DNA of 53,672 nt, counting the filler, from Jimgerdemannia flammicorona (lineage: Eukaryota), in assembly GCA_003990765.1 (NCBI GenBank). It is 2 parts of 2 records of this genome, joined end to end, with 100 filler letters (N's around TTAATTAATTAA, not from the genome) between each part and the next. Parts side by side here need not be neighbours in the genome. Positions count along the whole stretch, not along the records: positions 26,899 to 53,672 come from RBNJ01000695.1; 1 more part is not named here. One strand, given 5' to 3'. A program made the translations under genes and the position numbers. Shown in pieces: positions 5,000 through 43,505 of this stretch (within the stretch, counting starts at the first letter, position 1; the number at the start of each line of letters is the position of its first letter). The notes beneath the pieces are model-generated. The model was not told the origin of the DNA. It saw only the letters and a program-made list of their open reading frames with translations, and did not search any database.

Positions 5000-5085
5000 A
5001 TTACCAGCCAAGAAGGCACTAAAGAATACACTCCTGAAGTTGGAACAAGACTAACCTTGGACAGGAGTAACCCCCAGAATTAACT

Positions 5086-6900: not shown

Positions 6901-6924
6901 GGTTCAGGAAAGAAAACCCCTGAG

Positions 6925-7343: not shown

Positions 7344-7659
7344 CAAACCCCCTAGTCAAAAGGTCACTACCATGAAGGAAGATGATGAAAACTGGTACAA
7401 GAGAATTGCAGATAGTTATGCACTATGTAGAGGATGTCCTCATTCTATTTGAATGTACTGCATGGAACATATTGGTGAATGCCATGCATACCTCTCCAAA
7501 GTTTTCAAAATTCAATCTGAGAAGCATCAAGCCCAACAGACTGAGGAACCCAAACAAGACAACCCTCCTTGTGAAGGATGGAGAGAAACTGACTTTGAGG
7601 AGACTGACAGCAATTGGGACAACAATGAAGATGAAGAGCTCAATACCATCAAGAAGGAG

Positions 7660-11704: not shown

Positions 11705-12532
11705 ATGCCTGCTACCTGCCACCAAACTGCCCACCATAGCCAGCCCCTCCTAAGCCAGGTTAACCGCCTCTTTGGACACATCTAGGTTGCTATTCAAGGA
11801 AGGAACTGCTGCTCAGAGGCCCTTAACCTCTCTAGCCAGGGCCTAGGACACTATGTCCTCAACCACTGTGAAGTCATCGAAAGAGCCTACCTTGCCATCA
11901 GCCGTCTAGAGATTTGGCACGAATATGAGATTGGCCATCAACTCCTCCAATGGGCAAAGGACCTGCCCATGGACTAAGTCTCTGACTGGACTCACCTAGA
12001 TAGGCATGAGCAAAGACTTGCCAAGAAGGTCCACCAAATTATATGCCATGTACCCTTTGCAATCCCCAACCTCAACTATGTCCAACTGAAGGACTTCCAG
12101 AACCTCTCCTTCTTCGAGGTTGATGAACTAGAGATCAAGGTAGCCCAAGAAGTCAACTCCTGGATCACTCTCAAGTCTACTGACTGCAAACCCTACTGGA
12201 GCCCCCTCCTGAATGACAATCCTGACCAATGGCTCCAAGGCCTCTCTGACCTCTTCGAAGAACCACCTATCCGAATGGATATTCCCAGGCATAAAGATCA
12301 AGAGCCCTACTTGGATGGCCCCAACTGCATCAGATGGAGAACCCCTACACCAGCACCTATCCCAATGCAAGAACCATTTGCAGACCTCATTGACTTCTCT
12401 ATCCTGGACAGTGAGCCACCAGTAACTACCCCCCCTGCCCCTGAAGAAGATAGTAACAACCCTGAGGAGGATTCCCCACCTTTCTCTCCCCTGGTTCTCA
12501 ATTTCTCAATTAATGAGGACGTTGATTTCTAA
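11705..12532 (+). pseudogene. Accessory ORF of unknown function in element A (~275 codons), between pol and PPT
   Basis: ATG 11705 is in frame with TAA 12532; two internal stops read CAG in the copy at 22667; TATAAATACCC at ~11632; homologous to the LTR ORF of family C. Confidence 0.8.
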
Positions 12533-12543
12533 GGGAGGAAGGA
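12531..12543 (+). promoter_or_regulatory. Polypurine tract of element A
   Basis: AAGGGAGGAAGGA directly before the 3' LTR, overlapping the accessory ORF stop codon. Confidence 0.9.
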
Positions 12544-13355
12544 TGTAATAGAATGAACGAATGAGCGAATAGATGGGATATGATGAGATGAACAATCATG
12601 TGACCCGGCGATGACATCATCATATGAATGAAGCATGACATATGAATTACAAATGACGAATGATGTGAAACAATGTGGAAAATGATATCCAGCTTATCCC
12701 CAACAATCAGTACCACAGCAATAGTTGCCATAGCAGCTGATCATTGCCTAGTAATTGAGGTTCTGATCACAAAGTTATTTTTACCAAAAACTACCTGACA
12801 AAGGTCATAATCACAAACCTCATTATAGTTACCAAATTAGTTACTCATACTTAGTCAGAAATCGCAGACCAACTTGTATAAATACCCCCCAGTTTCCATC
12901 CGAAATAAAGCAGTTTTAGTTCAGTCCTTGATACAAGAATCAAGTCCCCCCACACACACACATTCCCCTGAGTCTTAGTAATGACATCTAAGTAACTCTA
13001 GTGTTTCTGACTAAACTCCAGAAGCCTAGCTAACTTCTGCCAGAACTGAGACCAGTATATAAATTCCCAAAGACTTAAGTAAATCCATTGAACCTGAATT
13101 CCAAGGTGAATTCAGTCTGTGCACAGCAAGGAATAAGACCCTTGAAATAGGGCACAAGAGAAAGACCTTTAAAACAGAAGGCAAACCAGAAAAAGACCTT
13201 TGAAAGATAAGGCACTGCCACTACAACTACTTTAAGCAAGCACTTCCTCAAACTGAAGGCTTCTTGGTATACATTGTGTACTAAGTCCCTAAGTAATAGT
13301 CCACTTCCCTAATTATCCAAAGGATAAGAGATGGATAGAAGTGAGAGTTATTACA
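12544..13355 (+). repeat. 3' LTR of element A
   Basis: TGTAATA...TATTACA, homologous to 4191-4984. Confidence 0.95.
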
Positions 13356-20727: not shown

Positions 20728-23700
20728 TCCATGATACTCCTGCAGTAGAATACTTTGGTTTTGGGAAGATCTATAATCTTCTCTCAAGAGAGTTCTACTG
20801 GCCAAGAATAACTAAGAACATCGAAGACTTTATAGCCTCATATAAGATATGTCAAAGGTTCAAGAGTAGTAACAAGCTACCAGCAGAACTTCTGCAACTG
20901 CTACAAATCCTAAGTCACAACTAAGATTAGATTGTAATGGACTTTATTGTTCAACTCCCCAAGACCAAGGCAGGATGAGATGCCATTGTGGTATTCATGA
21001 ATCACCTAAGCAAATAAGTCCATTTTGCACCTACTAAGACTACTGCTACAGTATCCAAGATTGCTAAGATTTCCTCAATCAAGTATTCAGGTTAAATAGA
21101 ATGTCTAGCACCATTATATCTGACCAAGATACCAAGTTTACAAGCAACTTCTGAAAGACATTCTTCTCTCTCTATGAAATTAAGCTGAAGTTCTCTACTG
21201 CCTACCACCCCCAGACTGATAGTCAAACCAAGTAAACCAATAGAACCCTCAAATAGATACTTAGCATCTTCTACTATTATAAGCAAAATGATTGAAATAA
21301 GTACCTAGCCCATACCAAGTTTGCCTACAACAATAGCCAGCAAACCTCTATAAAGAAGACTCCATTCTTCCTGAACCATAGTCAACATCCAAGGACCTCA
21401 AGTACTATTGTGAAATCAGTAGTTCCAGTAGCCCAAGATCTGGCTGAGACCATTTCTGATCTTATCTAAATGATAAGAGATGCTCTCATAGAAGTACAGG
21501 ACTATCAGACCAAGTATATAAATCTAAAATAAAGAGAAGTCTCTTATAATATTGGTGACATAGTCATACTTAGAACTGACCATCTCCACCCAGACACTCT
21601 GATATAACAACCAGTTAAGAAAATCTATACTAGAAGAATTAGACCATATAAGATTGTGGAAAAAGTCAGTGAAGTCAACTATAAGTTACAACTTCCCCAC
21701 AATATCTAAATATACATATCTAGTATTTCATATCAGCCAATTGGTGGACTACTATAAGAACCCATTTTCCAAGTATACAGTTCTACCACTACTCTCAATT
21801 AGGATAAATAATTATAAGAAATTTGACATTGAGAAAATACTTAACCATAAGATCTACAAATATCCCAAAACAGTCAAGTGGCTTTTTCTCATCAAGTGGA
21901 AGGGTTATCCCACCTATGACACTACCTGGGAACAGAAAGAAGCTCTGAAGAATATATATGAAGCCCTCTAGAACTATATGGAAATACTTACCCCCCAATA
22001 GAGAAAGGAACTACAGCTCTAAAAATTAAAGCATATAGTAAGCAAGGAGGATATTACATATTTTATCTGAAGTATATAATACTGAATATTGTAGAAAAGG
22101 GAATATCATAGTTAATCAACAAGAAGATACTTGGGCAAAGAACAATCTAGTATAGTGTAGCAAAATGCATTTGAACAACTCTATTTCATACTATCTGTGT
22201 CATCTCTACTGAATGATAACAGATGCTTCATATGAAACTTAGGAAAGCCAATAATATTAAAACCAATCTAAGTCTATCTATATAATAGATATTATTACTA
22301 GAAATTGCTTTGAATTATAAGAAATTCTATTTCTAAGAGGTTTGAACTCTCAGCTATGACAATAGGAGCTCTTGCTCTAGACAAGGATGGCTAGTCCTTG
22401 CAAATATACCAACCAGATAAAAAAAAAGAGAACCAAGATCTGTCAACTCTATGTAACCATAACTATAAGTAATAATATCTTTGAAATTAGAATTTTCTCA
22501 TGTAACTAGCATATATTCTACTTACAGTAATAGATTATAAATTTTCTACTAGAAAGTGTGATCAAAAGAAGATCACACTAGATAGAGGAATAAGTATAAA
22601 TACTCAAGGCCAAAATACCCTGCAACTCTTATCCCCCTCTCCTCACAAAGAAAAGATAAGACAAGAATACCTACTATCTACTGCCAAACTATCTGCTATA
22701 GCCAGTCCCTCTCAAGCCAGGTTGACTACCTCTTTGGATACATCCAGATTGCAATCCAAGAAAGGAACTGCTGCTCTGAGACCCTTAACCTCTCCAGCCC
22801 AGATCTAGGATAGTATGTCCTTGACTCTATGAACTTATTGAAAGAATCTACCTTACTACCAGCCACCTAGAGATATGGTATGAATATGAAATTGACCATC
22901 AACTCCTCTAATGTGTAAAGGACCTACCCACTGATCAGGTCTCAGATGGACCCACCTAGATAGGTATGAGCAAAGACTTGCTAAGAAGGTCCATCAAATA
23001 ATATACCACACACTCTTTATAATCTCTAATCTCAACTATGTTCAACTAAATAATTTCCAGAACCTCTCTTTCCCTGAGATTGACAAGCTAGAAATCAAAG
23101 TAGCCCAAGAAGCCAACTTCTGGATTACCCTCAAGTCTACTAACTGTGAACTCCACTAGAGCCCCCTCCTGAATGACAACTCAGACCAATGGCCCCAAGA
23201 CCTCTCTGACCTCTTTAAAGGACCACTTATCTGAATGGATATCTCTAGGCATGAGGATCAAGAACTCTACTTGGATGGTCCCAACTGTATCAGATGGAGA
23301 ACCCCTACACCAGTACTCATACCAATATAAGAACTATTTGCAGACCTTATTGACTTCTCCATTCTGGACAGTAAGCCATCAGTAACTACTCTCTCTGTTA
23401 CTGAAGAAGTAGGTATCAATACTGAGGAAGACTCCCCATCTTTCTCTCTCTTGGTTCTCAATTTCTGAATTAACAAGAACATTGATTTCTAAGAGAGGAA
23501 GGATGTAATAGAACAAATGAGCAAGTAAACAGATGAGATGTGATAAGATGAGCAATTATGTGATCTAATAAGTGATAATATCATTATATAATTAAGTGTG
23601 ACATTGATATTATGAATGATGAATAAATGAATGATGTAGAAAATGTTATGAAAAATGATATTCAGTTTATCCTAACAATCAGTACTACAGCAACTATTAT

Positions 23701-24307: not shown

Positions 24308-26500
24308 AAACTCCTTACTGAGGCCTTAGTGCTAATTACACCTGATCATACTAGGTCATTTACTCTGACTACAGATATCTCTGATATTGCTATTGGAGTA
24401 GTACTCAGCTAAGAAGATCTTCCAGTGGTCTACCTTTCCCAAAAGCTCAAGCTAGCTGAGATCTGATATACTACCCATAAGAAGGAACTTCTAGCCATTG
24501 TCACTGTACTCCAGGAATAGTACTATTTCCTCCTAGAACAACTATTTATAGCCTATACTGATCACTATACTCTATGATATATTCACATACAGCCCATACT
24601 AATCTATAGATAAGCTTGTTAAATAGAAATCATTATCAACTTTGATATAGAAATCAAGTATATCCCAAGCAAAACCAACTACATGGCTGATGGTTTCTCC
24701 AGATATATGGAAGATAAACTTGTCTTTATAGTCAAGATAATTGTACCTTATTCAGATGATCAAAAATAGCTATCAATAAGATAGCCCCCTGATGAAATTC
24801 CTTCATTTCTACTAAAACCCAGAGGCCAAGGTCCCAGAACTCCTGAGATAAATGTCTAAGAGATTTACTTACTGTGATAGACTTATCTACAGGAATTACA
24901 ACAGAGTAATTGTACTCAATAATGATACTCTATGACTCAAGATCATACAGGAACTCTATGATACTTCTGTAGTAAGACAATTTGGTTTCAAGAAGACTTA
25001 TAATCTCCTCCTAAGAGAGTTCTACTGGCCAAGATTGACTAAGGATATCAATGACTTTGTGGCCTCATGTAAGATATACTAAAGATTCAAAAGTAGTAAT
25101 AAGCTACTAGTAGGATATCTGTAATCTCTGCCTATTCCAAATCATAACTGAGATCAGATTGTAATAGACTTTATTATTTAGCTCTCCAAGACAAAGACAG
25201 GATAGAATATTATTGTGGTATTCATAGACTATCTAAGCAAACAAGCTCATTTTGCACTCACTAAGACCACTGCTATAGTATTAGAGATTGCTGAGATTTT
25301 TCTCAACCAAGTATTCAGGCTATATAATATATCTAGTACTATTATATCTGACTGAGATACCAAGTTTACAAGTAACTTCTAGAAGGTATTCTTCTCTCTT
25401 TATAGAATTAAGCTGAAGTTCTCTACTGCCTACTACCTCCAGACTGATGGTTAAACCAAGTAAACCAATATGACTTTCAAACAGATGCTTAGTATCTTTT
25501 GCTATTATAAATAGAATGATTGAGATAAGTATCTTGCCCATACTGAGTTTGCCTACAATAATAGCTAGTAAGCCTCTATAAAGAAGACTCTATTCTTCCT
25601 GAACTATAGTCAACACCTAAGAACCTCAAGCACTATTGTGAAATCAGTAGTCCCAGCAGCCTAAGATCTGGCTGAGACTATTTCTGATCTTACTTGAATG
25701 ATAAGAGATGCTCTCATAGAAGTATAGAACTACCAGACCAAGTATATAAACTTAAAGTGATGAGAAGTCTCCTATAATATTGATGACATAGTTATACTTA
25801 GAACAGACCATCTCTACCCAGACATCCTGATATAACAACTAGTTAAGAAACTCTGTACTAGAAGAATTGGACTATATAAGATTGTGGAAAAGTCAGCAAA
25901 GTCAACTATAAGTTGTATTTTCACTATAATATTTGAGTATATCCAGTATTCTATATCAGTCAATTGGTGGACTACTATAAGAACTCATTCCTCAAGCATA
26001 TAGTTCCACCACCATTCTCAATTAGGATCAATAATTACAAGGAGTTCAAAATTGAGAAAGAACTTGACTACAAAGTCTATAAATATTTCAAAATAGTCAA
26101 GCAGTTTTTCCTCATTAAGTGGAAGGGTTACCCCACCCATAACACTATCTGGGAAAAGAAAGAAGCTCTAAAGAATATATGTAAAGCTCTCCAGAACTAT
26201 ATAAAATACTTATCCTCCAGCAAAGAAAGAAACTGTAACTCTAGAACTTAGAGTATACAGTAGCAAAAGAAGACATTATATATTTTACCCAAAACATATA
26301 ATACTGAATATTACAGAAAAAGGAATACTATAATTAATTAATAAGAAGATACATACTCAGGTAAAGGACAATCTAGCATAGTGTAGCAAAATATATTTAA
26401 ATAACTCTATTTTATACCATCTGTATCATCTCCACTAGATGATAATGGATACTTTATATGAAACTTAGGAAAGCTGCCAATGTCGAAACCAATCTAAGTT

Positions 26501-26502
<2 letters not shown>
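24308..26502 (+). mobile_element. A-family copy 3: RNase H, integrase, chromodomain fragment
   Basis: Colinear with ~9116-11314; bounded by the LTR of copy 2 on the left and a poly(T) on the right. Confidence 0.92.
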
Positions 26503-26539
<37 letters not shown>

Positions 26540-26798: not shown

Positions 26799-26898
26799 NN
26801 NNNNNNNNNNNNNNNNNNNNNNNNNNNNNNNNNNNNNNNNNNTTAATTAATTAANNNNNNNNNNNNNNNNNNNNNNNNNNNNNNNNNNNNNNNNNNNN
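26799..26898. other. Assembly gap with artificial TTAATTAATTAA linker
   Basis: 100 bp of N with a central all-frame-stop linker at 26843-26854. Confidence 0.98.
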
Positions 26899-29150
26899 TT
26901 TTTTTTTGTTTAACGGACTCATGTCCCATGGATTTTTATTGGAAGGGAACCTAGACTATATAGGCCAAAACCCTCCCCCACCACCCACCAAGCACTGCCT
27001 CCCCATTAACCTAGGCTAGCTATTGTCCAGCAGCTCGACCATGCCAGGTGCAGCAGGGCTGATAAGCCCACATCTCATTCTGCGCACCATGCTCTCCCTA
27101 CCACCAGGGGAAACCCAACCATATGCCAACGACCGAAAGTGCATGCCTGAGAACCCAACATATGTACAAGGCTATGCCCGAGCTGAATAGAATAGCCCCT
27201 GCCACCCCAAAGAGAATGACAGGTAAAGAAAAACTCTCATCAAAGCACAACATGGTGGGTAGGGCCTGGTTCTCCCAGTTGAGGTGAGTAAAGGACTTAC
27301 ATGTGAGGTGGGAGAAAACCCCCAATACCCCACTACTCAAGCCTGTAGGCCTCGATCATATTGCTATGTCAGCTCCTGGTTCCAGTTGAGTGTAGCCAAG
27401 ATGCCTGAAATGGATAGCCTCAGGCCTTCCGACCCCCCCTGACGACTGGAGCCCAACCCCGCTGACCACCAAAAGAAGCCAATAGTGACACCTACCACCT
27501 AACTGCGCCACACCAATCAAAAGGCCCCACTGAAGCAGCACCTGCCCCAGCCCCAATGACCGCCCCCAGCCTGGCACCCTACTGGTTCACCATAATCATC
27601 CTTCCGCCTATCTGTAATGGCCATCTCCCCTCCCATCCCAACAACACCTGAAAAGCAGTCACCTATGCCAGAACTGTGCTCGTCAGGAAGCTCACCAAAG
27701 CCAGAGAGCCCCACCACAGGCACCGAGGACCTGCAGGTAACCTATACTGAGCACTTGATGCCCAAGGTCGGCCGACTCCCTACGTAGCCTGAGATACACC
27801 GAGACAACTCCTTGTTGGCAATGGCAAAAGGAAGAAAACGCCACACCAAAACAGGTACACCCCAGACACAGCTGAAGGCACCAGAATCCGCGAAAAAGTG
27901 GAGAAAACACAGATCTGACACCGATAAAGGGGCAACTCATCACTATTGCCCTCCTTCCACTATGCCCCTGCAGGCACAGCAAACCAACCCGAGGTAGAGG
28001 GGGTAATATTAGGGGAAAGGGGACTTGGAAGGTCGCTTACCAAACCTTGTGACTGGTAAGGTAGCGGAGAAAGGTGATGACAAGTCCTCCTCCTCCTTCT
28101 CACTCCCCTTCACCCTCGACACCTTACAGATGAATGTCCCCCACATCAGCACAGAAGGCCAGTTACTTGCCTTTCCTGTAGCCTCCTTGCCTGCCAGCCG
28201 AATCCTGACATCAATGTCGCCTGTCCTGATTGTTGTCCCCTCTTACATCTGAAAGCCAATTTCTACCATATCACCATATTCAATCATCACCTCCTCCACC
28301 CTCTTCCTAGTCTCCTCCTTAGTCACTGTGGGCACCCCCTTCACTAGGAGCTGCATCACCCTGGGGTCTCAATGCAAGCACCACACTATGGGGACCACCA
28401 CCTCCCCAACCACAACTCCAGTCTTCAGTGTCTCATCCAGTGGGCCTGCCTCCTCAAAGCCCACCTCAACCCCCTCCAGACCCTTCAAGAACTTCACTGA
28501 GACTGCCCCAGTCACCTGCTTCGAAACAAGCCCCAGAACTATCCTCACCATCACCACCAAGCCCCAGAAGCACAAGATCACCATGAACTCCAAGATTAAC
28601 TTCTTGAGCAACAGGGTCACTGCCAGCCCCATTACACCATCTGCCAGGTCTCCCTTCTGCATTGGGAACCCTGCCCCACCTGGCCATCAGCTATCACATC
28701 TCTTTTTTTTTTTCTGATTCCCCATCACACTCTCATCAACAGTCATACCCCCAGCCACAGCACCTCCAGCCCCTACTCCAGCACTCCCAGCCAGAGCACC
28801 ACCCTCCCTCCCAAGGCTTGCCTTGCCCTTCCCCTCAGCAGCACCAGTCCTAGTACCAGCTGGCCACCCACTCTCCTTCACCTTGTCTGCGAAGCTCAGG
28901 AGACCAGATCTTCCCCCATTACCACTGGACACTGGTCTCCCTCCAGAGTCTTTGCCACTCTTAGGCCCTCCGAAGGCCCCCATCCCCAGGCCATAACCCC
29001 TCCCCACCTGCTGCCAGTCGAAGGCCCTAGATCCACCCAACCTAGTATATACACCTATATGTTCATCACTTTCTATATTGCTAGTCACCTTTCACCAAAA
29101 ACATTGTCGAAAGTATTGTCTGAGTCTTGTATCACCTGAATGTTACCAGT
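26899..29150 (-). mobile_element. Internally deleted LINE (L1/Tx1-like): ORF1-like region plus ORF2 C-terminal remnant and poly(A)
   Basis: Poly(A) and AATAAA at 26899-26940 on minus; ORF1-like frame 29088 to ~28010 (SFADKVK, LLVKGVP..EYGDMVEI..IRTGDIDVRI); IALYICWVLRH resembles the ORF2 C-terminal W-x-x-R-N motif; no endonuclease or RT seen. Confidence 0.55.
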
Positions 29151-30714
29151 GAAAGATGAATGTACCTGATATTACCTATGTCTATCTGCAAATACTATTT
29201 GGAATATATAATGCTCCACAAGCTTTTAGCAAATAATAAACAGAGTCTTTAGCAATGAGATTGAAAAATAGCTCTTTATCTATATTGATGATGTGATCAT
29301 CTTCAGTAATACTGTACAGGAATATATTAACTATATATAGCTAGCTCTCAAGAAGCTCAAGGAGCATGGCCTCTATATTAAGCTCAAAAAGTATAAGTTT
29401 ACAGTTCAGGAAATCACCTACCTAGGACACATCATCAATCAGACTAGAATTCATATAGACTCTATGAAGATTGAGACTATTGTAGTCTACCCAAGACTCA
29501 GAACAACTATAGAAGTCCATACCTTCCTTGGACTGGCCTCCTACTATAGAAGATTTATCAAAGAATACTCTAACATTGTAGCACCTATCTATGAGCTACT
29601 GAAGAAGGAGACCAAATTTAAATAGACCAAGGAATGTTAAGAAATCTTCAATGAACTCAAGATTAGATTGACCCAAACACCCATCCTCAGGAGATCAGAT
29701 TAGAATCTAGAGTTTATTCTATAGATAGACACAAGTACTATAGGACTTAGAGCAGCCCTAGCTCAGAAGAAAGATAGATATAAATATGTCATCTCTTATA
29801 TAAGCTAAGGTATTTATAAAGTAGAACAGAACTACAAGTCATATAAGCTTAAATGCTTAGCAGTAGTTTGGGCAGTAGATAAGTTCCACTACTATCTAGC
29901 CAGAAAATACTTCACTATTCAAACAGACTATTCCACTCTCACCTGGCTATTCCACACTCTGAACTCTAAAGAAATATATGTCAGATAGATCTATAGGCTA
30001 TAAGAGTATGACTGTACTATTAGGCACTACTCAGAAAGAACCAATACCAATACTGATATACTCTCAAGAATACTCCAAAACACCCTCATCAAGACTATTC
30101 AATATGAACAAAGAGCTATACTATAGATTAATTAGCTATCTTGGGCAATAGAAAATATCCAACTATCTCAAACCCTGGACTATTACCATCATCAACTGGA
30201 CTTAGAAATAATTTGAACTAGACAACACTATACTCAGAAAAGGAGGAAAGCTCATAATATCTAAATATAAGAAGTATCAAGTAATGAAGGAAGCATATGA
30301 ACAAGGATACCTAGAAGGAACCAACATATATGACAAAGTAAGAAGAACTATATAGTGACCTAAGATGGAAGAAGACTTGTACCAATTTGTCAAAGAGTAT
30401 AATAAGTACTAAAAATAAAAACAAGATCAATAAGACCAGACATTTGGGTCATCAATAATTGAGTCTATTTACTTCCACTATATTACAATGAATATCATTA
30501 GACCACTATCAGTAACACTATCAGGAAACCACTATATTATAGTTATCATAGACCTCTTTACTAAATAGATAGAAGCAAGAACATTACAAAAAGCCAATGT
30601 TCTCTCTATAACTGACTTTCTATATTGAGAAATCATCTGCCACTACAAGATATCAAGGCAAATCACCACAGACCATAACACAGAATTTGTCAATAAATTC
30701 TATGAGATAATATA

Positions 30715-32309
30715 TAGTAATAGTCAAAAGTATATTAATATTTAGTTATTATTAATATTTTAATTATATTATATCTCCAATCTAAATTCTATTTAACTAA
30801 AATTTTAAATATTAATAAAATAGTCTTTAAACTTTTGAATAGTTTGTATTTTATTATATTTAGATAATTATAGATATTAATATAACCATTTTAAGTTAAA
30901 TTGTCTATTAGTACTATTTTGACCCCTCTCAGTATATAGACCTTTTTTTTTTTTTTTTTGATGCATACATTTTGCATACTATTAATATCCAAAATTTCAC
31001 CATTATTGTTTCAGACATTCTTTACAACTCTACAATGTTTTTGAGCAATATCAATTTAGTTTCATTGTTCTGATTTCCAAATTAGACCACTTAATGTTTT
31101 CCTCAATAACTTAGTGAGTTTTCAGTCAATTTTGATGATCCTGGTGCTATTGGAAAGTCATTCTCAAGAGCTTTTCAAAGATACCAAGGTCGTTAAAATC
31201 GGATAAAAATTCACCAAGTTATCAAGGAAAACGTCCAACTCGCTAAGTCCAAAACGAACATTTTCCTCAAAATCTCAATGAATTTTCATCCGATTTTAAC
31301 GTTTATAATATCATTGTGAAGCTCTCTATAATAGCTTTCCAATGACACCAAGATCATCAAAATCGGATGAAAACTCACTGAGTTATCGAGGAAAATGTTT
31401 GGTGGTCTAATTGGTAAGATAATGGTGAATATCAATAACATAAAAAGAACTCTCAAAAAGGTCAGTATATGTATGTAAGCAAAAAAAACCTGCTTTTGCT
31501 GCCTCGTTGCATCAAGGCACAATACAAATTTATAACATAAAGATTGAACCATGACAGCCGTAAATGGATATAGGCAAGGTGCAACCTTAAAACTGAACCA
31601 TGTGACCAGAACTCTAAAATTCAGTGGCCTCGATAACTCAGTGAGTTTTCATCCAATTTTGATGATCTTGGTGTCAATGGAAAGCTATTATAGAGAGCTT
31701 TACAATGATATTATAAAAGTTAAAATCAGATGAAAATTAACTGAGATTTTGAGGAAAATGTTCATTTCAGACTTAGTAAGTTGGACGTTTTCCTTGATAA
31801 CTTGGTGAATTTTCATCTGATTTTAGTCCTTGGTATCTTTGAAAAGCTCTTGAGAATGACTTTCCAATGGCACCAGGATCATCAAAATTGACTGAAAACT
31901 CACTAAGTTATTGAGGAAAATGTTAAGTAGTCTAATTTGGAAATCAGTATAATGAAACTAAATTGATATTGCATGAATACACTGTAGAGTTATAAAGAAT
32001 GTCTGAAACAATAATGGCAAAAATTTGAATATTGATAGCATGCAAAATGTATACATAAAAAAAAAAAAAAAAAAAAAAACAGTCTATATATTGAAAAGGA
32101 TCAAAATAGTACCAATGGATAATTTAACTTAAAATAGTTATATTAATGTCCATAATTATCTAAATATAATAAAACACATACTATTCAAAAGTTTAAAGAA
32201 CTATTTTATTAATGTTTAAAATTTTAGTTAAATAGAATTTAGATTAGAGATATAATATAATTAAAATATTAATAATCACCAAACATTGGTATACTTTTGA
32301 CTATCACTG
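30715..32309. mobile_element. Non-autonomous foldback DNA transposon (Tc1/mariner type) with ~680-bp TIRs
   Basis: Arms 30715-31391 and 31628-32309 are reverse complements; termini (C/T)AGT(G/A)ATAGTCAAAAG; TA duplication at 30713-14 and 32310-11; removal restores the integrase of D. Confidence 0.9.
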
Positions 32310-33514
32310 TATCAGAAATATAAAATTCAGCATATCAAAACCACTGCATATCACTCTCAAGGAAATGGACAGATAGAAAGAACCAACAAGACCCTCAAGA
32401 ATATCCTGATAAAGATCTCAGACACATATGACAATTAGAATAACTACCTCCCAACTGCTCTCTTTGTCCTATAAGATATATAATCACAGAGTACACACTT
32501 TACTCTAAGAGAACTGCTCTTTAGAGAAGAAGATTCCAATAGAACCTTAGCCATAAATCTAGATCTAACTTGGAGATAGATTGACTCAGAAATCTGGAGA
32601 CTATACTAAATCAGGAAGAAGGCTGAAGATTATATCATCAAGTCATAAGTACTGATAAGAAAAAATATAGAAAAGAATTACAAGACTCTAGAATTTATCT
32701 AAATTAGAGAAAAGGTCCTACTGTATTGAAATATAATAGAAACCTCATGATCATGAAAACTGGAGCCCAAATGAGAAGAACTCTTCTATATATAAGATAT
32801 CAAGAGAACTACCTTTTGGCTTAGAAAACTCTCAAGGACTATACTACCTATTATGATATATAGAAACAGACTCAAGAAGTACTATGAACCTATATAAGAG
32901 AAGTAAAACATGATGACTGCCCATAAGATTTTAGTCTACAAATTATAACAGCATGTCTCTTAACCAGCAGACAATCTGTCTGGACTATTCTCTAAGGAAT
33001 ATAGTACTAGTAACTATTCATCCATGAGACTTTCAAAGCCAAAGGAGTTCAAACTATCAACTGATTGATCAAGATCAGAATCAGACCCTTGCTCTATATG
33101 AAGAGAGTAACTCTTCACCATTATACCAAAATATATAGAGAAGATGCCAGCCTATAAATATCACTTTTCGATCTCCTATTAGAGATTATAAGATCAGCAA
33201 ATTTTTTAGACTGGACCAATAAATTAGAATATTTAAGAGAAGATCCTTATTTAGAAGAAAGATGTAACAGTGACCTCAGAATGATGATATTATCACAGGA
33301 GAAAGCCTTTTCTTATAAGCCACCAGATTGAAGTATAAGAAGATCATATAGTATAACTCACCTAGGCTATAAGATGAGTAATAATAACCAACTAGGAGTT
33401 ATCATAACTACAAGACAGATATCTTGAGAAATATAAAAGAAGGATCAAGAAACTACAGTAGCAGTAACCTAAACAAGACTCACAGAAATAGTTCAAAAGA
33501 CTTACTATAAACAA

Positions 33515-34332
33515 ATGTCTGCTCACTAAACCTCAAGGTCCAGGAACTACTAAGATTCCTCAGTCTAGGAAAGGATGTTCCAAGACATTAGAAGAGCCAT
33601 GAAAACTCACATAAGAAGGACTCCTAGCCTCAACCTGGGTACTAGTAACTCTTATCATTATATCCTCTACTACTATGAAATGGAAACAAGGATCACTATT
33701 ACTACCAAATATCTCTGTATATGGTAGGAATATAAAGAAACCTCCTCTGCCAGGAATTCTCTCAGACCAGTCTCCAAGAAATATAAGATACTACTTTTAT
33801 AGATATATATGAAATAAGGATAGCTAAGAAGATTCATTATGTCTTCAGGCATATACTATAGTTGATCTCCAACTTGGAGTGTACTAGAGTCTCAGACTTT
33901 AAGAAATAGTCAGCTCACCATACTAATGCACTGGAGGCCATGGTGGCCACAGAAGCCCAGTCCACTATTACTCTCAATAGTAATGAAATAGAAGAGTTCT
34001 GGGATCTCATCCTCTAGGATAATTCAGATCAATTTCTACAAGGATTGATCTCAGCATTCCAAGGCCCCAGCATCCAGGTTAGACCTCTCCAAGACCCCAT
34101 ATTTGTTTCTTATTTTGTAGAAGAGAATGTCATAGATTAGGGAGACCCTATCACTGCTGAATAAGATGATATCACCCACAATAATGTTATTAATGATGAT
34201 GTCATTCTGTATAATATATGCAAAATATATGAAATGGATGAAATATTCATAGATCTCATTTTCTTAGAGAATATTCTGACCTCTGACAGTGATGAAGATA
34301 AAGCCTCCATGATTCTGAACATTTTGCTCTAA
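33515..34332 (+). pseudogene. Accessory ORF copy inside the LTR of element D
   Basis: Homologous to 34778-35569, more degraded. Confidence 0.75.
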
Positions 34333-34535
34333 GTTCTTGATAATACCAAAATCTTCAGATATACTTTTCCTGTACTACCAAAATCTACCAGCATTCTGAA
34401 CTTATACAACCATTTGTACAGATACTTGAATTTGTACTTATAACTATAGTTTTCTGTATTCTAGTATTTTATTTAGTTATTGGAATTTATATTTAGCTTT
34501 ATAACTTAGCAACTATTGAATTATATTTTGTATAA

Positions 34536-36046
34536 TGTAATGGTGACCCCAGAATAATGACATTAGTACAGGAGACAGCCTTTTCTTGCAAGCCATCAGA
34601 TTGGAGCACAAGAAGATCATATGGCATATGAAATGAGCAATGATGACCAACTGTGAGTCATTGTGACCACAGTATAAGCATCCTGAAGAATATAAAAGAA
34701 GGATCAAGAAACCACAGTAGCAGTAACCAATAAGAACCACCAATTCCAAAATAGCTCAAAGACTTATCACAAACAAAATGCCTGCTGCCCACCAAACCTC
34801 AAGGTTAAGGAATCACCAAGGTATCTCAGTTGAGGAAAGGATGTTCCAAGATATCAGAAGAGTCATGAGGACCCACTCAAGAAGGACTCCCAGTGTCAAC
34901 CTAGGTACTGCAGACCCTTATCACTATATTCTCTACTGCCATAAAATAGAAACTAGGATCACCATTGCTACCAAATGCCTCTAAATGTGGCAGGAGTATG
35001 AAATAGGAAACCTCCTTTGCCAGGAGTTTCCACAAGCCAGTACTCAAGAGCTACAAGATGCTATCTCTATGGATATATGTGAAACAAAGATAGCTAAGAA
35101 GATCTATCAGATCTTCAGACATACACTATAGTTGATCTCCAACTTGGAGTATGTTAGAGTCTCAGATTTCAGGAATCTGTCATCCTGCCATATCAATGCA
35201 CTAGAAGCCAGGGTGGCTACAGAAGCCCAGTCTACTATCACCCTCAATAGTGATGAAGTAGAAGACTTCTGACACCCCATTCTTCAGGACAATCTAGACC
35301 AATTCCTGCAAGAATTGATCTCAGTATTCTAAGGCCCAAGCATCTGGGTTAGATCTCCCCAAGACTCCACATTTATCCCTTATTTTGTGGAAGAGAACCT
35401 CATAGATTAGAGAGCCCCTGATTTCTCCACTGAATGTGATGATGTCATTGGTGATGATGTCATCCTGTGCAACATCAAGGTATATGAAAATGATGAATTC
35501 ACAGATCTCATCTCCTTCAGTGATGATGATGATGATGAAGCCTCCATAATTCTAAACTTTCTGCTCTAAGTTCTTTGTTATACTGAATAATACCAGTACT
35601 GGTATTTTGATGTAACACTGGATAATGCCAGCATCAGTATTTTGATATAACACCAGATAATACCAGCACTGGTATTCTGATGTGATACTGAATTATACCA
35701 GCATCCTGAACCTGTACAACCATCAGTGCCAACCCTGAAACTTAGTAGTTTTAGTTATTGGAATTTATATTTAGCTTTATATCTTAATAACTATTGAATT
35801 ATATTTTGTATAAATACCCCTCTTATTTCCTCTGAAATAAAGTCAGTTCTGGTTTCACTTACATACACTTTCTTGCAAGCAATCTAAGAGATAACAAGAT
35901 AGTTAAAGATAAGAAGTTTGAGGACTATAAGACCTTGAGAAGGTACTCCAATAAGAACTTGCTTATAATAAACTTGAGTTAGTCTAAGAGATACATCTTG
36001 AAGAGAATCTGACATATTTGAAGGACTCAGCGACCACTATATGACA
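34536..36046 (+). repeat. 5' LTR of element C (1511 bp)
   Basis: TGTAATGG...ATGACA; direct repeat of 41741-43249; includes a 35-bp tandem array (~35580-35705) and TATAAATACCCC at ~35809. Confidence 0.93.
34778..35569 (+). pseudogene. LTR (U3)-encoded accessory ORF of element C, 264 codons
   Basis: 792-nt ATG-to-TAA frame with no indels; internal stops are sense codons in another copy or are TAG/TGA pairs from TGG. Confidence 0.85.
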
Positions 36047-36099
36047 ACTTGGTGCCCATTGGCTGGTGATTCAAGACAAATCCCTCACTTTCAAGCTAA

Positions 36100-39000
36100 A
36101 AAACGAACAACTCCCACAATAACTACTCTGACTACAAGAGTCACCCCTGCAAGAATTCAAGATAAGATGGAAATGCATCCCCCCACATTCTATGAATATA
36201 TTATTGAAGAGTCAATCCTGACCTTCATTGAAGACTTTGAATAATTTGTCACTATACGAGCCCTTGGTGTGGATGCACAATTGGTCCTTCTACCAGTCAG
36301 CCTCAGAGGACCTGCCAGAGATAAGTTCAATATAGCCACCATTACTGATGCTGGTGCAGCCAAACTTGCCAACATGAAGGCCTTCCTCAGAATAATATAT
36401 TATACTAAAGAGATCAAGCAAGCTCTCAAGGATCATCTCAATACTATCTATCAGGGACTTAGTGAAGATCCCAATTCATTCTATACTCGAATCTGCTACC
36501 AGATTGTCTTGGCTGACTATGATGACTGCCTCAAGGAACAAATAGTAGATTCAACCTTCCTCAAAGGAGTTCACTCTGAAATTGCTCTAGCAATCCAGTC
36601 TACCCCAGCTGCACTGACCCTTGATCAGAAAGTAGTCTTTGCATAGAGATATTGGACTGTCAGACACCCTGCCGAACACTCAATGGAGAAAATAACTGGC
36701 ATCAAGATGGAGCCATCAAAGCTAACTAGTATCATATCTGCCACAGTTGTAAACAGACAACCAATCCCACCTATCCCCAAGACAGCCAAAGCTGACCCAG
36801 TGGAAGAACTCGCCAAGCAGTTCACCAAGATGACTGCATGCCTTGGTGATGTTGTTAGAGAAGTCTGAAGTGCCAACAGGAGACCAGTGCAGAGATTTGC
36901 AGCTGCTACAGAAGAACATAATATTACATGCTTCAGATGTGGAGAAGAAGGCCACTATGCAAAGAATTGCATAACTGAAACAAGACACAAAACTCAACCA
37001 AGCAATGCTAGCAGAACCAGAGAACAAATTAATACAGTAATTATCGAGGAGATTAGTGATACTGATAATGAAGAATACTATAAAGAGTTTGAATTCTACC
37101 CTGCTACTGAAGATACCAGAACTCAGTCCAAGCCCTATGACAAGAAGAGCAATAGCAAGCCAGTTGGAAGACCAAAGAAGACCCCAGCTGTTACTATTTA
37201 AAGCAAGACCCAACCTGAGGAGATTGATCAAGACATGGAGTTAGATGAAGCTACCTGCCAAATTATCAAAGGCACTACTCCAGTCTCAGAAGAAAGTGAA
37301 AGCAAGAAGGAACAGAAGCTGTGCAAGACCAAGATCCACCAGTATGATATTTACAAGGACCTCAAGGAACAGAAGGTCAATGCCACTTTTGGACAACTAG
37401 CTGAAGTTTCTACCTTTAGACAGCAGTTGAGAGTAGGACTTACAACTACTACCAAGAATCAAGAGTACAAGATTGTAGAAGCTCATAATGCACAGAAAGA
37501 ATCTGAGAACTCAGGTGAAGAATCTGAAGACCAGTGCAAGATATCAGCCTATACTCCATGTCAGATTGAAGACTGTATCTTTGATGCCATCATTGATACC
37601 AGTGCTGGAGGATGCCTTATGAGTAAGAAGGCAATTGACTGCCTAGGTTGAGACATTAAAGAGTCTACTAAGATGGTCTATATTACAGCAGATGGTACAC
37701 AAGCTACCCCCCTTGGTAAAATCCAAGAAGTCCCCATCAAGATAGGAGGAGCTACCAACCCAGTAGACATGATTGTTATAAGTACCACTAACTATAACAT
37801 CCTCATTGGTAACTAATGACTTCACAAGGCCAAGGCTATTATTGACCTCAATGCCCAGAAGATGCAGATCAACTATAAAGAAAGAAATGTATGAGTCTCT
37901 ATCAATGTCCACAAAGGAGTTCTACCAGACATAGAGAAAGGAGATGAAGAGGACACAGAGGTCTTCATGCACTTGGTGAACAAGAACAAGAACAAGACAC
38001 CCAAGCTCACAGATGAGCAGTAGTACAACAAGATCATCAATGGCTATGCCCCTCAAGAAAGATGCCCCCATGGTACTAGGATGTACTACTCTGAACATCT
38101 GAATGACTGCTGGTCCTATATTAGTGAAGTCAGGAAAATCTGCCAACAGAAACATGAGCAAGAAGCTGCTGAAGCAAAAAAGAAAGCCAAAGAAGATGAT
38201 CAGCCCCCAGAGCTTTAAGCTGATAGTGATGATGAGGAGGAACAAGAACCAGATATCACCCTCAAAGTCAAGAAGTTTCACCCCAAAGCCAAGATCCCCA
38301 AATACAAGACTGAAGGAGCCATAGGAATGGACCTTGCCAGCATTCAAGATACTACCCTTGAACCACAGACCACCACCCTACTTGGTACTAGAATTGGAGT
38401 CAAGCTGCCAGAGAACCATGTCAGAATTATCAAGACCAGGAGCAGTCTGGCTAAAAGCAAAATCTCAGTTGAAGGAGGAGTAATTGACCCTGATTACACT
38501 GGTGAAATCTTCCTCATAGTCAGAAATCACCACCACACCACCCCATTCGAAGTCAAGAAGCATGACAGGATTGGCCAGATGCTGATCTATGAAGTTAAGA
38601 AGCTCAAGATCATTGAAGCCATCAAACTCATCAAGACCAAGAGAGGAGAACAAGGCTTTGGATCTACTGGAAGAGGAGCCTATGCCACCACCAAGATTAC
38701 TGAACTTGAGCATAAGAAAGACAAGAACCAGAATAAGCATACATATACCATTGGAGAAAACTTTCCCCTGGAGGAACAACTTCTCAAGATCCTGTACCAG
38801 AATGAAGAAGTACTTGCTATAGACTTCAGAGATATCCACAATCAAGAACTCAAGTACTACCACAAAGTTGACACCAGTGATACCAAGCCTATCTACCAGA
38901 AAGCCAGACCCATACCACCTGCCTACAGAGAGTGGCTGTGAGCAGAACTCAAGGAAATGGAAGAAGCCAGGATCATCAAGCAAGCTATCAGCCCCTGGGC

Positions 39001-41390
39001 TTCACCTATTATCCTCACCCTAAAGAAAGGAAGCAAACCTGGAGAGTTTGTGCCAAGACTCTGTATTGACTACAAGAAGCTCAATACTATCACCAAGAAG
39101 GATAGGCAGCCTTTGCCAAATATTCAAGAAATCCTTACCACCCTTAGAAGTGAAGCCAAATACTATACCACCTTGGATCTGTTCTCAGGCTTCCATCAGA
39201 TTAGTCTCACTCAAGATGCCAGTAAGAAATCAGCCTTCATTACATCTAATGCCATCTATATCTACCTGTGAATACCATTTGGAATGTGCAATGCCTCAGT
39301 AAGTTTTCAGTAAATGATGAACAGAGTCTTCAGCAATGAGATTGGAAAATGGCTCTTTGTCTATATTGATGATGTGATTATCTTCAGCAATACTGCATGG
39401 GAACATGTCAATTATATACAGCTAGCCCTCAAGAAGCTTAAGGAGCATGGTCTCTACATCAAGCCCAAGAAATGCAAGTTTACAGCTCAAGAAATCACCT
39501 ACCTAGGACACTTCATCAACCAGACCAGAATCCACACAGACCCCATAAAGATCAAGGCTGTTGTAGCCTACCCAAGACCCAGAACAACTACAGAAGTCCA
39601 TGCCTTCCTTGGACTGGCCAGCTACTATAGAAGATTCATCAAAGGATACTCCAACATTGCAGTACCTATCTATGAGCTACTGAAGAAGGAGACTAAATTC
39701 GAATAGACCAAGGAGTGCTAAGAAACCTTCAATGAACTCAAGACCAGGTTGACCCAAGCACCTATTCTCAGAAGACCAGATTGGAATCTAGAATTCATTC
39801 TACAGACAGATGCAAGTGCTATAGAACTTGGAGCAGTTCTAGCTCAGAAGAAAGATAGACATAAATATGACATCTCCTATACAAGCCAAGGTATCTACAG
39901 AGCAGAACAGAACTACGAGTTATGCAAGCTCAAATACTTAGCAGTAGTTTGGGCAGAGACAAGTTCCACTACTACCTAGCCAGGAAATACTTCACTATTC
40001 AAACAGACCATTCTGCTCTTGCCTGGCTATTTTACACTCTGAACCCCAAAGGAATATATGCTAGATAGATCTACAGATTGCAAGAGTATGACTATACTGT
40101 CAAGCACTGCTCAGGAAAGACCAACACCAATGCTAATACACTCTCAAGGACACCTCAAAACACTCTCATCAAGACTATTCAATATGAATAAGGAGCTATA
40201 CTATGAATTAATCAGCTATCTTGGGCAGTGGAAAATGCCCAACCACCTTGAACTTTGAACAATCACCATCATCAACCAGACTTGGAAACAGTTTGAACTA
40301 GACAACACTACACTCAGAAAAGGAGAAAAGCTAGTAATACTCAAATATAAGAAGTATCAAGTAATGAAGGAAGTATATGAGCAAGGACACCTAGGAGGAA
40401 TCAATATATATGACAAGGTAAGAATAACTATGTGGTGGCCCAAGATGGAAGAAGACCTATACCAATTTGTCAAAGGGTATGACAAGTGCCAAAAACAGAA
40501 ACAAGATCAGTAAGACCAGATACCTAGATCATTAAGAATTGAGCCTATCCCCTTCCACCACATCACAATAGATATCATTGGACCACTATCAGTAACATTA
40601 TCAGGAAACTGCTATATTATAGTTATTATAGACCTCTTCACCAAATGGATAGAGACAGGAGCATTACAAAAAGTCAATGTCCTCTCTATAGCTGACTTCC
40701 TGTACTAAGAAATCATCTGTCACTATAAGACACCAAAGAAAATTACAACAGACCGCAGAATGGAATTTGTCAATGGATTCTACAAGATAATGTATCAGAA
40801 ATATAAGATCCAGCACATCAAGACCACTGTGTACCACCCTCAAGGAAATGGACAAATAGAGAGAACCAACAAGACCCTCAAGAATATCCTAGTGAAGATC
40901 TCAGAGACATATGAGAATTGGAATAACTATCTCCCAACTGCCCTCTCTGTCCTATGAGACATATGGTCACAGAGCACACACTTTACCTCAAAAGAGCTGC
41001 TCTTCAGAGAAGAAGATTCTGATGGAGCCTCAGCCACAAATCTAGACCTAACTTGGAGATGGGTTGATGCAGAAATCTGGAGACTACACCAAATCAGGAA
41101 GAAGGCTGAAGATTATATTACCAAGTTACAAGTACTAATAAGGAAGAATGTGGAAAAGAATCACAAGGCCCTAGAATCTATCCAAATTAGAGAAAAGGTT
41201 CTACTGTATTGAAATATAGTAGAAGCTTCATGGTCATGAAAACTGAAGCCCAAATGGGAAGGACCCTTCTATGTATAAGATATCAAGAGAACCACCTTCT
41301 GGCTTAGAAAAATCTCAGGGACCATACTGCCTACCAGTACAGGAACAGACTCAAGAAGTACTACAAACCTATACAAGAGAAGCAAAATGT
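36100..41390 (+). pseudogene. pol: Gag-pol of element C: gag, CCHC knuckle, protease, CPHG module, dUTPase, RT, RNase H, integrase (no chromodomain)
   Basis: CFRCGEEGHYAKNC; IIDTSAGG protease; dUTPase RSSLAK, GGVIDPDYTGEI, RGEQGFGSTG (38265-38675); RLCIDYKKLN, YIDDVII; TDASAI; HPQGNGQIERTN; ORF pieces from 36269 to 39979 share one frame. Confidence 0.93.
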
Positions 41391-41740
41391 GATGACCGCC
41401 CATGAGGTTCTAGTCCATGAATTATAATAGCATGTCCCATGACCAGTAGACTATCTGTCTGGACCATTCTCTAAGGGATACAGCACTGGCAACTACTCAT
41501 CCATGAGACTTTCGAAGTCAGAGGAGTTCGAACTGTCAACTGATTGGTCAAGATCAGAATCAGGCCCTTGCTCTATATGAAGGGAGCAATCCTTCACCAT
41601 TATACCAAAATACAAAGAGAAGACACCAGCCCATAAACACTACTTTTTGACTCTTTGCCAGAGGTTATGAGATCAGCAAATTTTTCAGAACTGGACTAAT
41701 GAATAAGGATACTTGAGAAGATCCTTATTCAGGAGAAAGA

Positions 41741-43249
41741 TATAATGGTGACTCCAGAATGATGACATCAGTATAAAAGATAGCCTTTCCTTGTAAGCCA
41801 CTAAATTGGAGCACAAGAAGATCATATGGTATATGAAATGAGCAATGATGACCAACTGTAAGTCATTGTGACCACAGTATAAGCATCCTGAAGAATATAA
41901 AGAAGGATCAAGGAACTGCAGTAGCAGCAACCAACAAGAACCACCAATCCCAAAATAGCTCAAAGACTTACTACAAACAAAATGCCTGCTGCTTGCCAAA
42001 CCTCAAGATCAAGAAATCATCAAGATATCTCAGTTGAGAAAAGGATGTTCTAAGACATCAGAAGAGCCATAAGGACCCACTCAAGAAGGACTCCCAGTAT
42101 CAACCTGGGTACTGCAGACCCTTATCACTATATCCTCTACTACTGTGAAATGGAAACCAGAATCACTATTGCTACTGAATGCCTCCAAATATGGCAGGAG
42201 TATGAAATAAGAAACCTCCTCTGCCAGGAGTTCCCACAAGCCAGCACTCAAGAGCTACAAGATGCCATCCCCATAGATATATGTGAAACAAGGACAGCTA
42301 AGAAGATCCATCAGATCTTTAGGCATGCACTATGATTGATCCCCAACTTGGAGTATATTAGAGTCTCAGATTTCAGGGACCTGTCATCCTGCCATATCAA
42401 TACACTAGAAGCCAGAGTGGCTACAGGAGCCCAGTCTACTATCACCCTCAACAGTGATGAAGTAGAAGACTTCTGGCATCTCATCCTTCAGGACAACCCA
42501 GACTAATTCCTGCAAAAATTGATCTCAGTATTCTAAGGCCCAAGTATCTGAGTTAGATCTCCCCAAGACCTCACATTTGTCTCTTATTTTGTAGAAGAGA
42601 ACCTCATAGATTGGAGAGCCCCTGATTTCCCCACCAAATATGATGACATCATTGGCAATGACATCATCCTATATAATATTGAGGCATGCGAAAATGACAA
42701 ATTCGCAGATCTCATTTCCTTTAGTAATGATGATGATGATAAAGCCCCCATGATTCTGAACTTTCTGCTCTAAGTTCTTGTTATACTGAATAATGCCAGC
42801 ACTGATATTTTGATATAACACTAGATAATACCAGTACTAGTATTTTGATGTAATACCGAATAATGCTAGCACTGGTATTCTGATATGACACTGAATTATA
42901 CCAGCATCCTGAACCTGTACAACCATCAGTGCTGACCCTGGAACTTAGTAGTTTTAGTTATTGGAATTTATATTTAGCTTTATATCTTAGCAATCATTGA
43001 ATTATATTTTGTATAAATACCCCTCTTATTTCCTCTGAAATAAAGTCAGTTCTGGTTTCACTTATACATACTTCCTTATAAGCAATCTAAGAGATAACAA
43101 GACAGTTAAAGATAAGAAGTTTGAGGACTATAAGACCTTGGGAAGGCACTCCAATAAGAACTTGCTTATAACAAACTTGAGTTAGTCTAAGAGATACACC
43201 TTGAAGAGAATCTGGCATATTTGAAGGACTCAGCAACCACTATGTGACA
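41741..43249 (+). repeat. 3' LTR of element C (1509 bp), with accessory ORF copy 41982-42773
   Basis: Follows the PPT; starts TATAATGG (mutated TGTAATGG), ends TGTGACA. Confidence 0.93.
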
Positions 43250-43505
43250 ATAAATACCCCTCTTATTTCCTTTGAAATAAAGTCAGTTCCAGTTCATTTA
43301 TACTCAATTTCATGCAAGCAATCTAAGAGATAACAAGACAGTTTAAAGATAAGAAGTTTGAGGACTATAAGACCTTGGGAAGGCACTCCAATAAGAACTT
43401 GCTTATAACAAACTTGTAGTTAGTCTAAGAGATACACCTTGAAGAGAATCTGACATATTTGAAGGACTCTGCAACCACTATGTGACAATAGATAAAAAGT
43501 ATGAT

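Follow-up and report, generated by a model that had tools for sequence, protein, structure and literature searches.

A candidate accessory gene inside the long terminal repeats of a dUTPase-carrying Ty3/gypsy lineage in the Jimgerdemannia flammicorona genome

Introduction

Extra genes in retrotransposons with long terminal repeats (LTRs) are already known, and so are genes situated in the U3 of a few retroviruses. In the betaretrovirus MMTV, the sag gene encodes a superantigen from within the U3 of the LTR; bel2/bet of foamy viruses and nef of lentiviruses are 3' accessory genes overlapping U3, and foamy viruses moreover drive their 3' genes from an internal promoter. A literature search (with partial journal coverage) for phrases that place an ORF in the U3 or the LTR gave matches on foamy virus (PMC11362648), on MMTV (PMC9412291) and in a methods sentence, and brought up no retrotransposon whose LTR contains a complete sense gene with a promoter of its own.

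Additional ORFs of Ty3/gypsy elements are exemplified by gene23 of maize Grande and brtn of Botrytis Boty, both described in the text available for the two sources as antisense and internal (PMC7264820; 10.1101/2021.04.13.439636), gene23 having its own promoter and encoding a nuclear protein (PMC7264820). The additional ORFs of plant LTR retrotransposons are, according to the available part of the same review, internal and found in both sense and antisense orientation, and the phrases “in the LTR” and “within the LTR” are absent from it (PMC7264820). As for fungal elements, the accessible text on Postia placenta PosPlaTy3-5 places a dUTPase between PR and RT, and an “add. ORF” of unknown function is given there for fungal chromoviruses (PMC2864245), whereas the passages available on Podospora Crapaud describe variable 5' halves of the LTR and mention gag and pol ORFs only (PMC10787394). 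Rotifer elements are also listed with a dUTPase between PR and RT in the part of a review at hand (PMC6431247), and LTR retrotransposons of bdelloid rotifers are described, in the available text, as having a captured ORF3 beside gag and pol (PMC5408684).

The locus described here belongs to a 53,672-nt stretch of J. flammicorona DNA (filler included), which consists of two parts of two records of the assembly GCA_003990765.1 joined end to end and is referred to as the window, all positions being counted along it. Of particular concern are one of its Ty3/gypsy elements, “element C”, with an ORF inside the LTR, and a sister lineage (“E1-type”). As in MMTV sag, a complete ORF would reside in the U3 (as argued below), hence in both LTRs, and the LTR exceeds 1.2 kb; unlike in MMTV sag, no sequence relation is seen, the element is a Ty3/gypsy one without env, and the protein has no hydrophobic segment. 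A 3' accessory gene at or over the PPT/U3 boundary is shared with bel2/bet and nef, as would be the internal promoter that is proposed below for the E1-type; these retroviral genes, however, only overlap U3, whereas the whole gene of C together with its TATA box would lie inside it, and there is no homology. What Grande gene23 and Boty brtn, as far as the sources describe these, have in common with the C gene is that an LTR retrotransposon has an accessory gene in its 3' part, but the C gene is sense and inside the LTR rather than antisense and internal. PosPlaTy3, likened here by description, is likewise a dUTPase-bearing Ty3/gypsy element with an extra ORF, although the available text of PMC2864245 places no ORF inside an LTR, and the bdelloid elements, also likened by description, have an extra ORF too, but in animal hosts.

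Results

The window contains nested, decayed Ty3/gypsy elements, as seen by self-comparison and direct reading (Table 1), and a GH18 fragment as well as a fragment of a lipase-type hydrolase (Pfam) are also present in it.

Table 1. Coordinates of the features of elements C, E3, E1 and E2 along the window
Feature	Coordinates	Strand	Remarks
5' LTR of element C	34536..36046	+	1511 nt, TG...CA; PBS-like TGG starts at 36050
3' LTR of element C	41741..43249	+	1509 nt; begins with TA, a transition from TG
PPT of element C	41730..41740	+	caggagaaaga, adjoins the 3' LTR start
TSD (ATAA) of element C	left 34532-34535, right 43250..43253	+	direct reading
Single gag-PR-dUTPase-RT-RNaseH-INT frame of C	36050..41737	+	gag ATG at 36167
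Accessory ORF, 5' LTR copy	34778..35569	+	263 codons; stops TAA69, TAG118, TGA165, TAA185, TAG211
Accessory ORF, 3' LTR copy	41982..42773	+	263 codons; stops TAA24, TGA118, TAA175, TAA185, TGA190
TATA box of the LTR-borne gene	34691..34696	+	87 nt upstream of the ATG
TATAAA-27 nt-AATAAA module	35809..35841	+	AATAAA at 35836, the first after the ATG
Tandem repeat	35582..35705	+	35-nt unit repeated in tandem 3.5 times, past the ORF and ahead of the main TATA
E3 internal (pol) remnant	29176..33262	+	broken up by an inverted-repeat insert (30712-32312)
E3 3' LTR, left part	33263..34535	+	older C-type copy; holds the ORF copy 33515-34331
E3 3' LTR, right part (R-U5)	43254..43487	+	cut off by the C insertion
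E1 element	4191-13355	+	5' LTR 4191-4984, gene internal
E1 ORF	11705..12532	+	275 codons, 2 stops, TATA at 11632
E1 PPT	12533..12543	+	GGGAGGAAGGA, between the ORF TAA and the LTR, adjoining both
E1 3' LTR	12544..13355	+	~0.8 kb, without the ORF; partner 4191-4984
E2 ORF, decayed	22667..23492	+	followed by PPT 23493-23503 and LTR 23504-24308

Element C (34536-43249) has LTRs that are 89.4% identical over 1513 aligned columns and, by virtue of these, the PR-RT-RNaseH-INT order, a PPT, a TSD and a PBS-like site (a TGG 3 nt past the 5' LTR end, the PBS being scored by position and TGG), it falls within Ty3/gypsy (Metaviridae). Its gag-pol frame contains 31 stops in 1896 codons and no frameshifts, and Pfam places in it a zinc knuckle, followed by the aspartic protease (gag-asp protease, 503-592), dUTPase (746-874), RVT_1 (1003-1154), RT_RNaseH_2 (1220-1302), Integrase_H2C2 (1435-1485) and rve (1500-1597). 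The element was inserted into the 3' LTR of the older element E3, at the latter's own TATA box, and the E3 LTR resumes past C, which independently confirms the C LTR bounds that the first-pass annotation had drawn from PPT, PBS and TSD; all three of these landmarks (the PPT end, the TGG and the ATAA pair) were found by direct reading. In contigs representing other copies, pol-end/PPT sequence likewise directly precedes position 34536 (five cases in X1 and one each in X2 and X4, i.e., in three of the four metagenome runs compared, each from a different study), one contig having 209 nt of such upstream sequence. The 35-nt repeat occurs as copy-number variants among the metagenome contigs.

A rival view would deny that the 1.5-kb repeat is an LTR and take it for a by-product of tandem or nested copies, the ORF really being internal as it is in E1 (see below); in its favour are the nesting at this locus and the additional R-U5 copy that follows the 3' LTR. 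This extra R-U5 is, however, the split remainder of the E3 LTR, flanked by the ATAA duplication, while the PPT stands directly before the 3' repeat and the PBS-like site directly after the 5' one; with contigs of three runs from three studies also joining the pol-end/PPT straight to 34536, such an origin of the repeat seems highly improbable.

The two 792-nt frames, which had been noted as free of indels, were borne out in both their coordinates and their length, each opening with an ATG and neither having an indel relative to the other. In the remaining five reading frames, the same stretch is interrupted by 11-27 stops, compared to 5 in this one, and 5000 mononucleotide shuffles gave a mean of 15.2 stops (P of 5 or fewer = 0.0016). 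Stops amount to 5 of the 263 codons (1.9%) in the ORF versus 31 of 1896 (1.6%) in gag-pol, and the LTR frame has thus decayed no faster than known coding sequence. As had been claimed, most of the stops differ between the copies: three of the five in each are private to it, at codon 118, one copy has TAG where the other has TGA (either is a single transition from TGG), and codon 185 reads TAA in both.

Transitions account for all of the 158 differences that separate the C LTRs, and the share of sites mutated (with C/G taken as the older state) is 87% for CpG, 31% for CpA, 27% for CpC and 4% for CpT. The decay of C is a cytosine-deamination-type or RIP-like hypermutation, by which stops arose from CAA, CAG, CGA and TGG. 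Both C copies of the ORF and that of E3 are dead, and gag-pol is mutated likewise; the E3 copy is more decayed than those of C, a 4-nt deletion shifting its frame and many stops interrupting it. The idea that the ancestor was open stands for the family, which has open relatives, but not in full for the particular C insertion, given the TAA at codon 185 in both of its copies: the element may have been already broken at this codon when it inserted, or both copies may have mutated there. An intact C-type element was seen neither in the window nor in the metagenome contigs compared.

A word-index search yielded, from 139 candidates, four open relatives of 59-79% identity, and, of 1.84 billion cluster representatives compared with the profile, six came up at E <= 0.001, four of them at 1e-30 or better. 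The eight clusters concerned comprise 11 member proteins, all metagenomic, encoded on short metagenome contigs and none named beyond “hypothetical protein”; their open state is to be read with the fact that they derive from gene callers, which report open frames only. The identity of aligned family members to P0005 spans 80% to 29%, and P0004, P0005 and the other open C-type relatives were compared as proteins alone. The aligned members share the motifs W-x-E/D-Y-E-I, HQ-x-F/I-x-H, LE-x-x-V/I-A, LQDN-x-D, F-x-G-P-x-I, DLI-x-F and LNF, the gaps of the family alignment are in-frame, and homology extends to the last residues. At each of the ten stops of the C copies, one or more of the open relatives, or else the sister LTR copy, has Q, W or R. 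At the nucleotide level, metagenome contigs show G at 35272 (TGA->TGG) and C at 35330 (TAA->CAA), leaving codons 165 and 185 open; these are the two of the five stop positions of the 5' copy that are covered among the 40 of 629 differences listed, and the open state accounts for nearly all of the depth in four of four runs (in X1, 716.8 of 727.7 and 2264.1 of 2477.2). The contigs are short unitigs, none of which reaches from the ORF to the two ends of the LTR. Among the ten runs listed as carrying family sequence, eight are soil metagenomes (best share 0.20), and no RNA run is among those listed. The roughly twofold depth of the ORF bins relative to the internal bins in X1 was not used, depth not being copy number.

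A metagenome scan with the E1-type alignment resulted in one locus from 145 matches, L001, a 1535-nt contig with an intact 291-codon family member, while the same scan with the C-type alignment gave 365 pattern matches, none of which was confirmed. Differences between L001 and E1 are distributed over the codon positions as 73:58:120 (chi-square p = 4e-6), with pN of 0.23 and pS of 0.65. The two C LTRs, taken as a neutral control, are themselves skewed (32:18:47; pN/pS 0.34), owing to a transition-only spectrum and a base composition differing by codon position, for which reason NG86 dN/dS was not trusted alone; with transversions only, the codon-position skew is not significant (39:33:50 for L001-E1 and 12:5:14 for E3-C). 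Indels between E3 and C measure 3, 4, 3, 15, 3, 3 and 15 nt within the ORF and 14, 1, 32, 1 and 1 nt in the non-ORF LTR, six of the seven former ones being multiples of three if the 4-nt gap at the ATG is read as one nucleotide upstream and three inside the ORF. These comparative grounds (open relatives, stops falling at Q/W/R, in-frame indels and the intact L001 copy) identify the 792-nt frame as a real gene that codes for a protein and is conserved at the protein level; a protein-coding gene is also what the first-pass annotation had proposed.

When the family was compared with the window (tblastn), five copies were found, two in C and one each in E3, E1 and E2, the last of these elements being an 81% identical relative of E1. 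In E1 (GGGAGGAAGGA), E2 (GAGAGGAAGGA) and L001 (GGAGGGAGGA), the TAA of the gene abuts the PPT, after which the LTR starts with TGTAAT, and the layout of TATA, stop and PPT in L001 is as in E1. An ORF between the pol end and the PPT, which is what defines an additional ORF (“aORF”), is thus found in E1, E2 and L001, but not in C or in E3, the older copy at 29176-34535, which also holds the gene in its LTR; the lineages thus differ in where the gene lies with respect to the LTR boundary. A reading without any move, in which the internal copy would simply be that of E3, was dropped once the E1 and E2 homologues had been found.

E1 and C are 29.7% identical over 742 residues from RT to IN, 38% in the dUTPase and 34% in the ORF product, and the presence of the gene in both, despite pol being only ~30% identical, indicates that its retention spans roughly the same time as the divergence of pol. 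This bears on whether the ORF might be a mere passenger, i.e., a host gene fragment or chance ORF that was transduced once, has no role and is decaying. Such an origin would agree with the protein having no known domain, no fold match and very few database relatives, but not with the retention of the gene in two lineages so far apart in pol, with relatives that are open down to 29% identity and have conserved motifs in common, with the conserved position of the TATA box, or with the lack of a cellular homologue among the 1.84 billion representatives, and is considered quite unlikely.

At the DNA level, the 3' regions of C and E1 align over a 49-nt stretch around the main TATA/AATAAA and otherwise only by a 24-nt match within the ORF. 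Flank homology of E1/L001 versus C, scored for a PPT shift or a cassette move, was weak (z 0.3-4.2) and pointed both ways. Hence, of the earlier suggestion that the gene moved between internal and LTR positions, the difference in position holds (E1, E2 and L001 versus C), whereas the flank scores favour neither a mechanism nor a direction; a PPT shift would be a reasonable mechanism for the change of the boundary between gene and LTR.

Both TATAAA boxes reported for the C LTR, at 34691 and 35809, are indeed there. The upstream one has counterparts (TATAWA) 72-87 nt upstream of the ATG in six of six copies (both of C, E3, E1, E2 and L001), and this position is kept even though the regions upstream of the ATG barely align across the lineages. 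Past the ORF, the C LTR has exactly one further TATAWA, that of the downstream module, and the E1 LTR has the same TATA/AATAAA pair at the same 27-nt spacing (12877/12904). The ORF starts 242 nt into the C LTR and ends 240 nt before the TATA that is common to the E1 LTR. We infer that the genomic RNA has its promoter and its poly(A) signal in the TATA-27 nt-AATAAA module, and the homology of this module with that of the ORF-less E1 LTR suggests that the ORF of C lies in the U3. The earlier placement of the ORF in the U3 accordingly holds as to its location in the LTR upstream of the TATA/AATAAA module, the U3 itself being assigned by homology.

Alternatively, the ORF would be in the LTR but outside the U3 if the TATA at 34691 drove the genomic RNA, the ORF then being the first cistron of a long R/leader. 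Conservation of the upstream TATA in all six copies is compatible with that, but the same TATA is downstream of pol in E1 and L001, where it is not the genomic promoter and can serve the accessory gene only, and the module in common with the ORF-less E1 LTR is the downstream one. Expression of gag would presumably also suffer from a leader that contains an AATAAA and an upstream ORF of 263 codons, which altogether makes a leader cistron unlikely, and placement of the ORF in the U3 is the reading followed hereafter.

No Pfam family was obtained for the accessory protein (at E <= 0.1 and 0.01), no cellular homologue was present among the 1.84 billion cluster representatives, and no homology to a known retroviral U3/3' accessory protein was seen (Pfam, 6 representatives and 11 cluster members). 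The ESM Atlas contained no match of 0.9 or more, its own model having a pLDDT of 0.35, and AlphaFold2 (with 10 sequences) produced a poor model (pLDDT 50.4) with helices over residues 18-149 and the last 55 residues disordered; the best hits of a wide VIA-align fold search (Z of at most 4.6) were all single long helices, pointing to no family. The maximum of a 19-residue Kyte-Doolittle window is 0.59-1.05 in six family members, i.e., there is no hydrophobic segment, and the protein is therefore not env-like (of the errantivirus/Athila type). The pI of six members is 4.5-5.9, and those with a C-terminus have an acidic C-terminal tail (net -9 to -22) carrying DLIxF and LNF, while C-type members have a basic N-terminus (net +8 over the first 60 residues of P0005).

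Discussion

Taken together, the frame is probably a true accessory gene belonging to a Ty3/gypsy lineage with a dUTPase, and encoding an orphan, soluble, acidic protein of ~265-340 aa, with the cassette in the U3 of C-type elements. In these, the cassette (own TATA, 87-nt leader and ORF) would sit between the PPT and the main TATA/AATAAA module, and reverse transcription would, by virtue of the U3 placement, copy the gene into both LTRs. The gene would be transcribed from its own TATA, and the C-type transcript could end at the LTR AATAAA to yield an mRNA of ~1.1 kb within a single LTR. A genomic RNA starting ~30 nt after the main TATA would, in turn, not have the AATAAA at its 5' end, so that the signal would act at the 3' end only. 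In E1-type elements, the same gene would be a 3' internal one with an internal promoter and a transcript ending in the 3' LTR. That each LTR, a solo LTR included, might represent a complete cassette, as had been proposed at first pass, fits the anatomy, TATA, ORF and AATAAA all being inside the LTR.

A more far-reaching, and rather doubtful, scenario is that a self-promoted gene moved across the PPT into the U3 and that every LTR thereby became an autonomous gene supplying a trans-acting factor to the remaining elements. Copies in LTRs or solo LTRs could then provide, e.g., a transactivator or an anti-silencing adaptor acting via the acidic tail. What the protein does can be proposed from its composition and motifs only, and these tentatively suggest that it regulates the element or host defence in trans, or serves as an adaptor. 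Binding would then fall to a conserved helical core, and the recruitment of host factors or the activation of transcription to the acidic tail with its interspersed hydrophobic residues (DLIxF ... D/E-rich ... LNF).

Conclusions

If the scenario of a self-promoted gene that moved into the U3 is true, the C-type element would be a retrotransposon counterpart of the retroviruses with U3 genes, and would add a new orphan protein family, one that would be missed by annotation pipelines because it sits in “non-coding” LTR sequence. Should the cassette be expressed, the dosage of the gene would follow the number of LTRs rather than that of elements, solo LTRs would be more than regulatory relics, and the internal and in-LTR arrangements of the two lineages would constitute a natural experiment on the evolution of the LTR boundary, i.e., of the position of the PPT.

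Mutational decay of element C and of the copy it interrupts

Pairwise comparison of the two LTRs of element C, the decayed Ty3/gypsy retrotransposon carrying an accessory ORF in each LTR (34536-36046 and 41741-43249), showed that 158 of the 158 differences are transitions, with the share of mutated sites depending on context (CpG 87%, CpA 31%, CpC 27% and CpT 4%), the mark of deamination or a RIP-like process, albeit one of unusual context profile. At positions that are T or A in the window, metagenome copies have mostly C or G. The metagenome contig consensus also has CGA in place of the TGA that C carries, within 41712-41740, just before the polypurine tract; in this family, pol may thus stay open across the tract and extend a few bases into the LTR.

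The LTR of E3 (33263-34535 and 43254-43487), the older C-type copy into which C is inserted, is about 75% identical to that of C in the ORF part, against 92-95% around the TATA box and across R-U5. The difference suggests that constraint or hypermutation is uneven along the LTR, or that the neighbouring R-U5 copies have undergone conversion. The insert within E3 pol contains internal repeats of approximately 164 nt and is possibly of foldback or MITE-like type.

Features located in the window
Feature	Position	Strand	Details
Third dUTPase-carrying gypsy element	13354-15264	minus	RT 33.6% and dUTPase 35.7% identical to C
N runs	26799-26842 and 26855-26898		
Insert within E3 pol	30712-32312		Inverted arms 30712-31391 vs 32312-31628, 90% identical
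Tandem repeat	35582-35705		3.5 copies of a 35-nt unit; U3 of C, between ORF and TATA
Glycoside hydrolase family 18 fragment	48847-49416	minus	E 3e-27
Alpha/beta-hydrolase lipase region fragment	50580-51626	plus	E 5e-17

Sister-lineage elements and remaining sequence

E1, the sister-lineage element, lacks a matching target-site duplication (GAAGT at 4186-4190 vs TAGAG at 13356-13360); either recombination between two copies or mutation of the flanks may explain this. The minus-strand gypsy element is truncated exactly at the end of the E1 3' LTR, and a search for the accessory ORF found none associated with it. As the stretch directly 3' of the LTR of E2, the second E1-type copy, is 80% identical to E1 mid-pol (24310-26503 vs 9118-11315), another truncated or nested copy adjoins that LTR.

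The glycoside hydrolase and lipase fragments look like host genes and are probably exons of intron-containing ones. A block of 54-55% GC (27001-29000) holds frames rich in proline, serine and threonine, for which no Pfam match was found.

A shared TATA/AATAAA module

Joints of the metagenome contigs at the U3 tandem repeat skip or repeat 36-95 nt, so the copy number of its unit varies among copies; E3 aligns poorly to C over the same stretch. The LTRs of C and E1 are hardly alignable outside a TATAAA/AATAAA pair, whose spacing is exactly 27 nt in both (35809-35841 and 12877-12909, respectively), which suggests that the poly(A) signal coincides with the start site or immediately precedes it and would, hence, be functional in the 3' LTR only.
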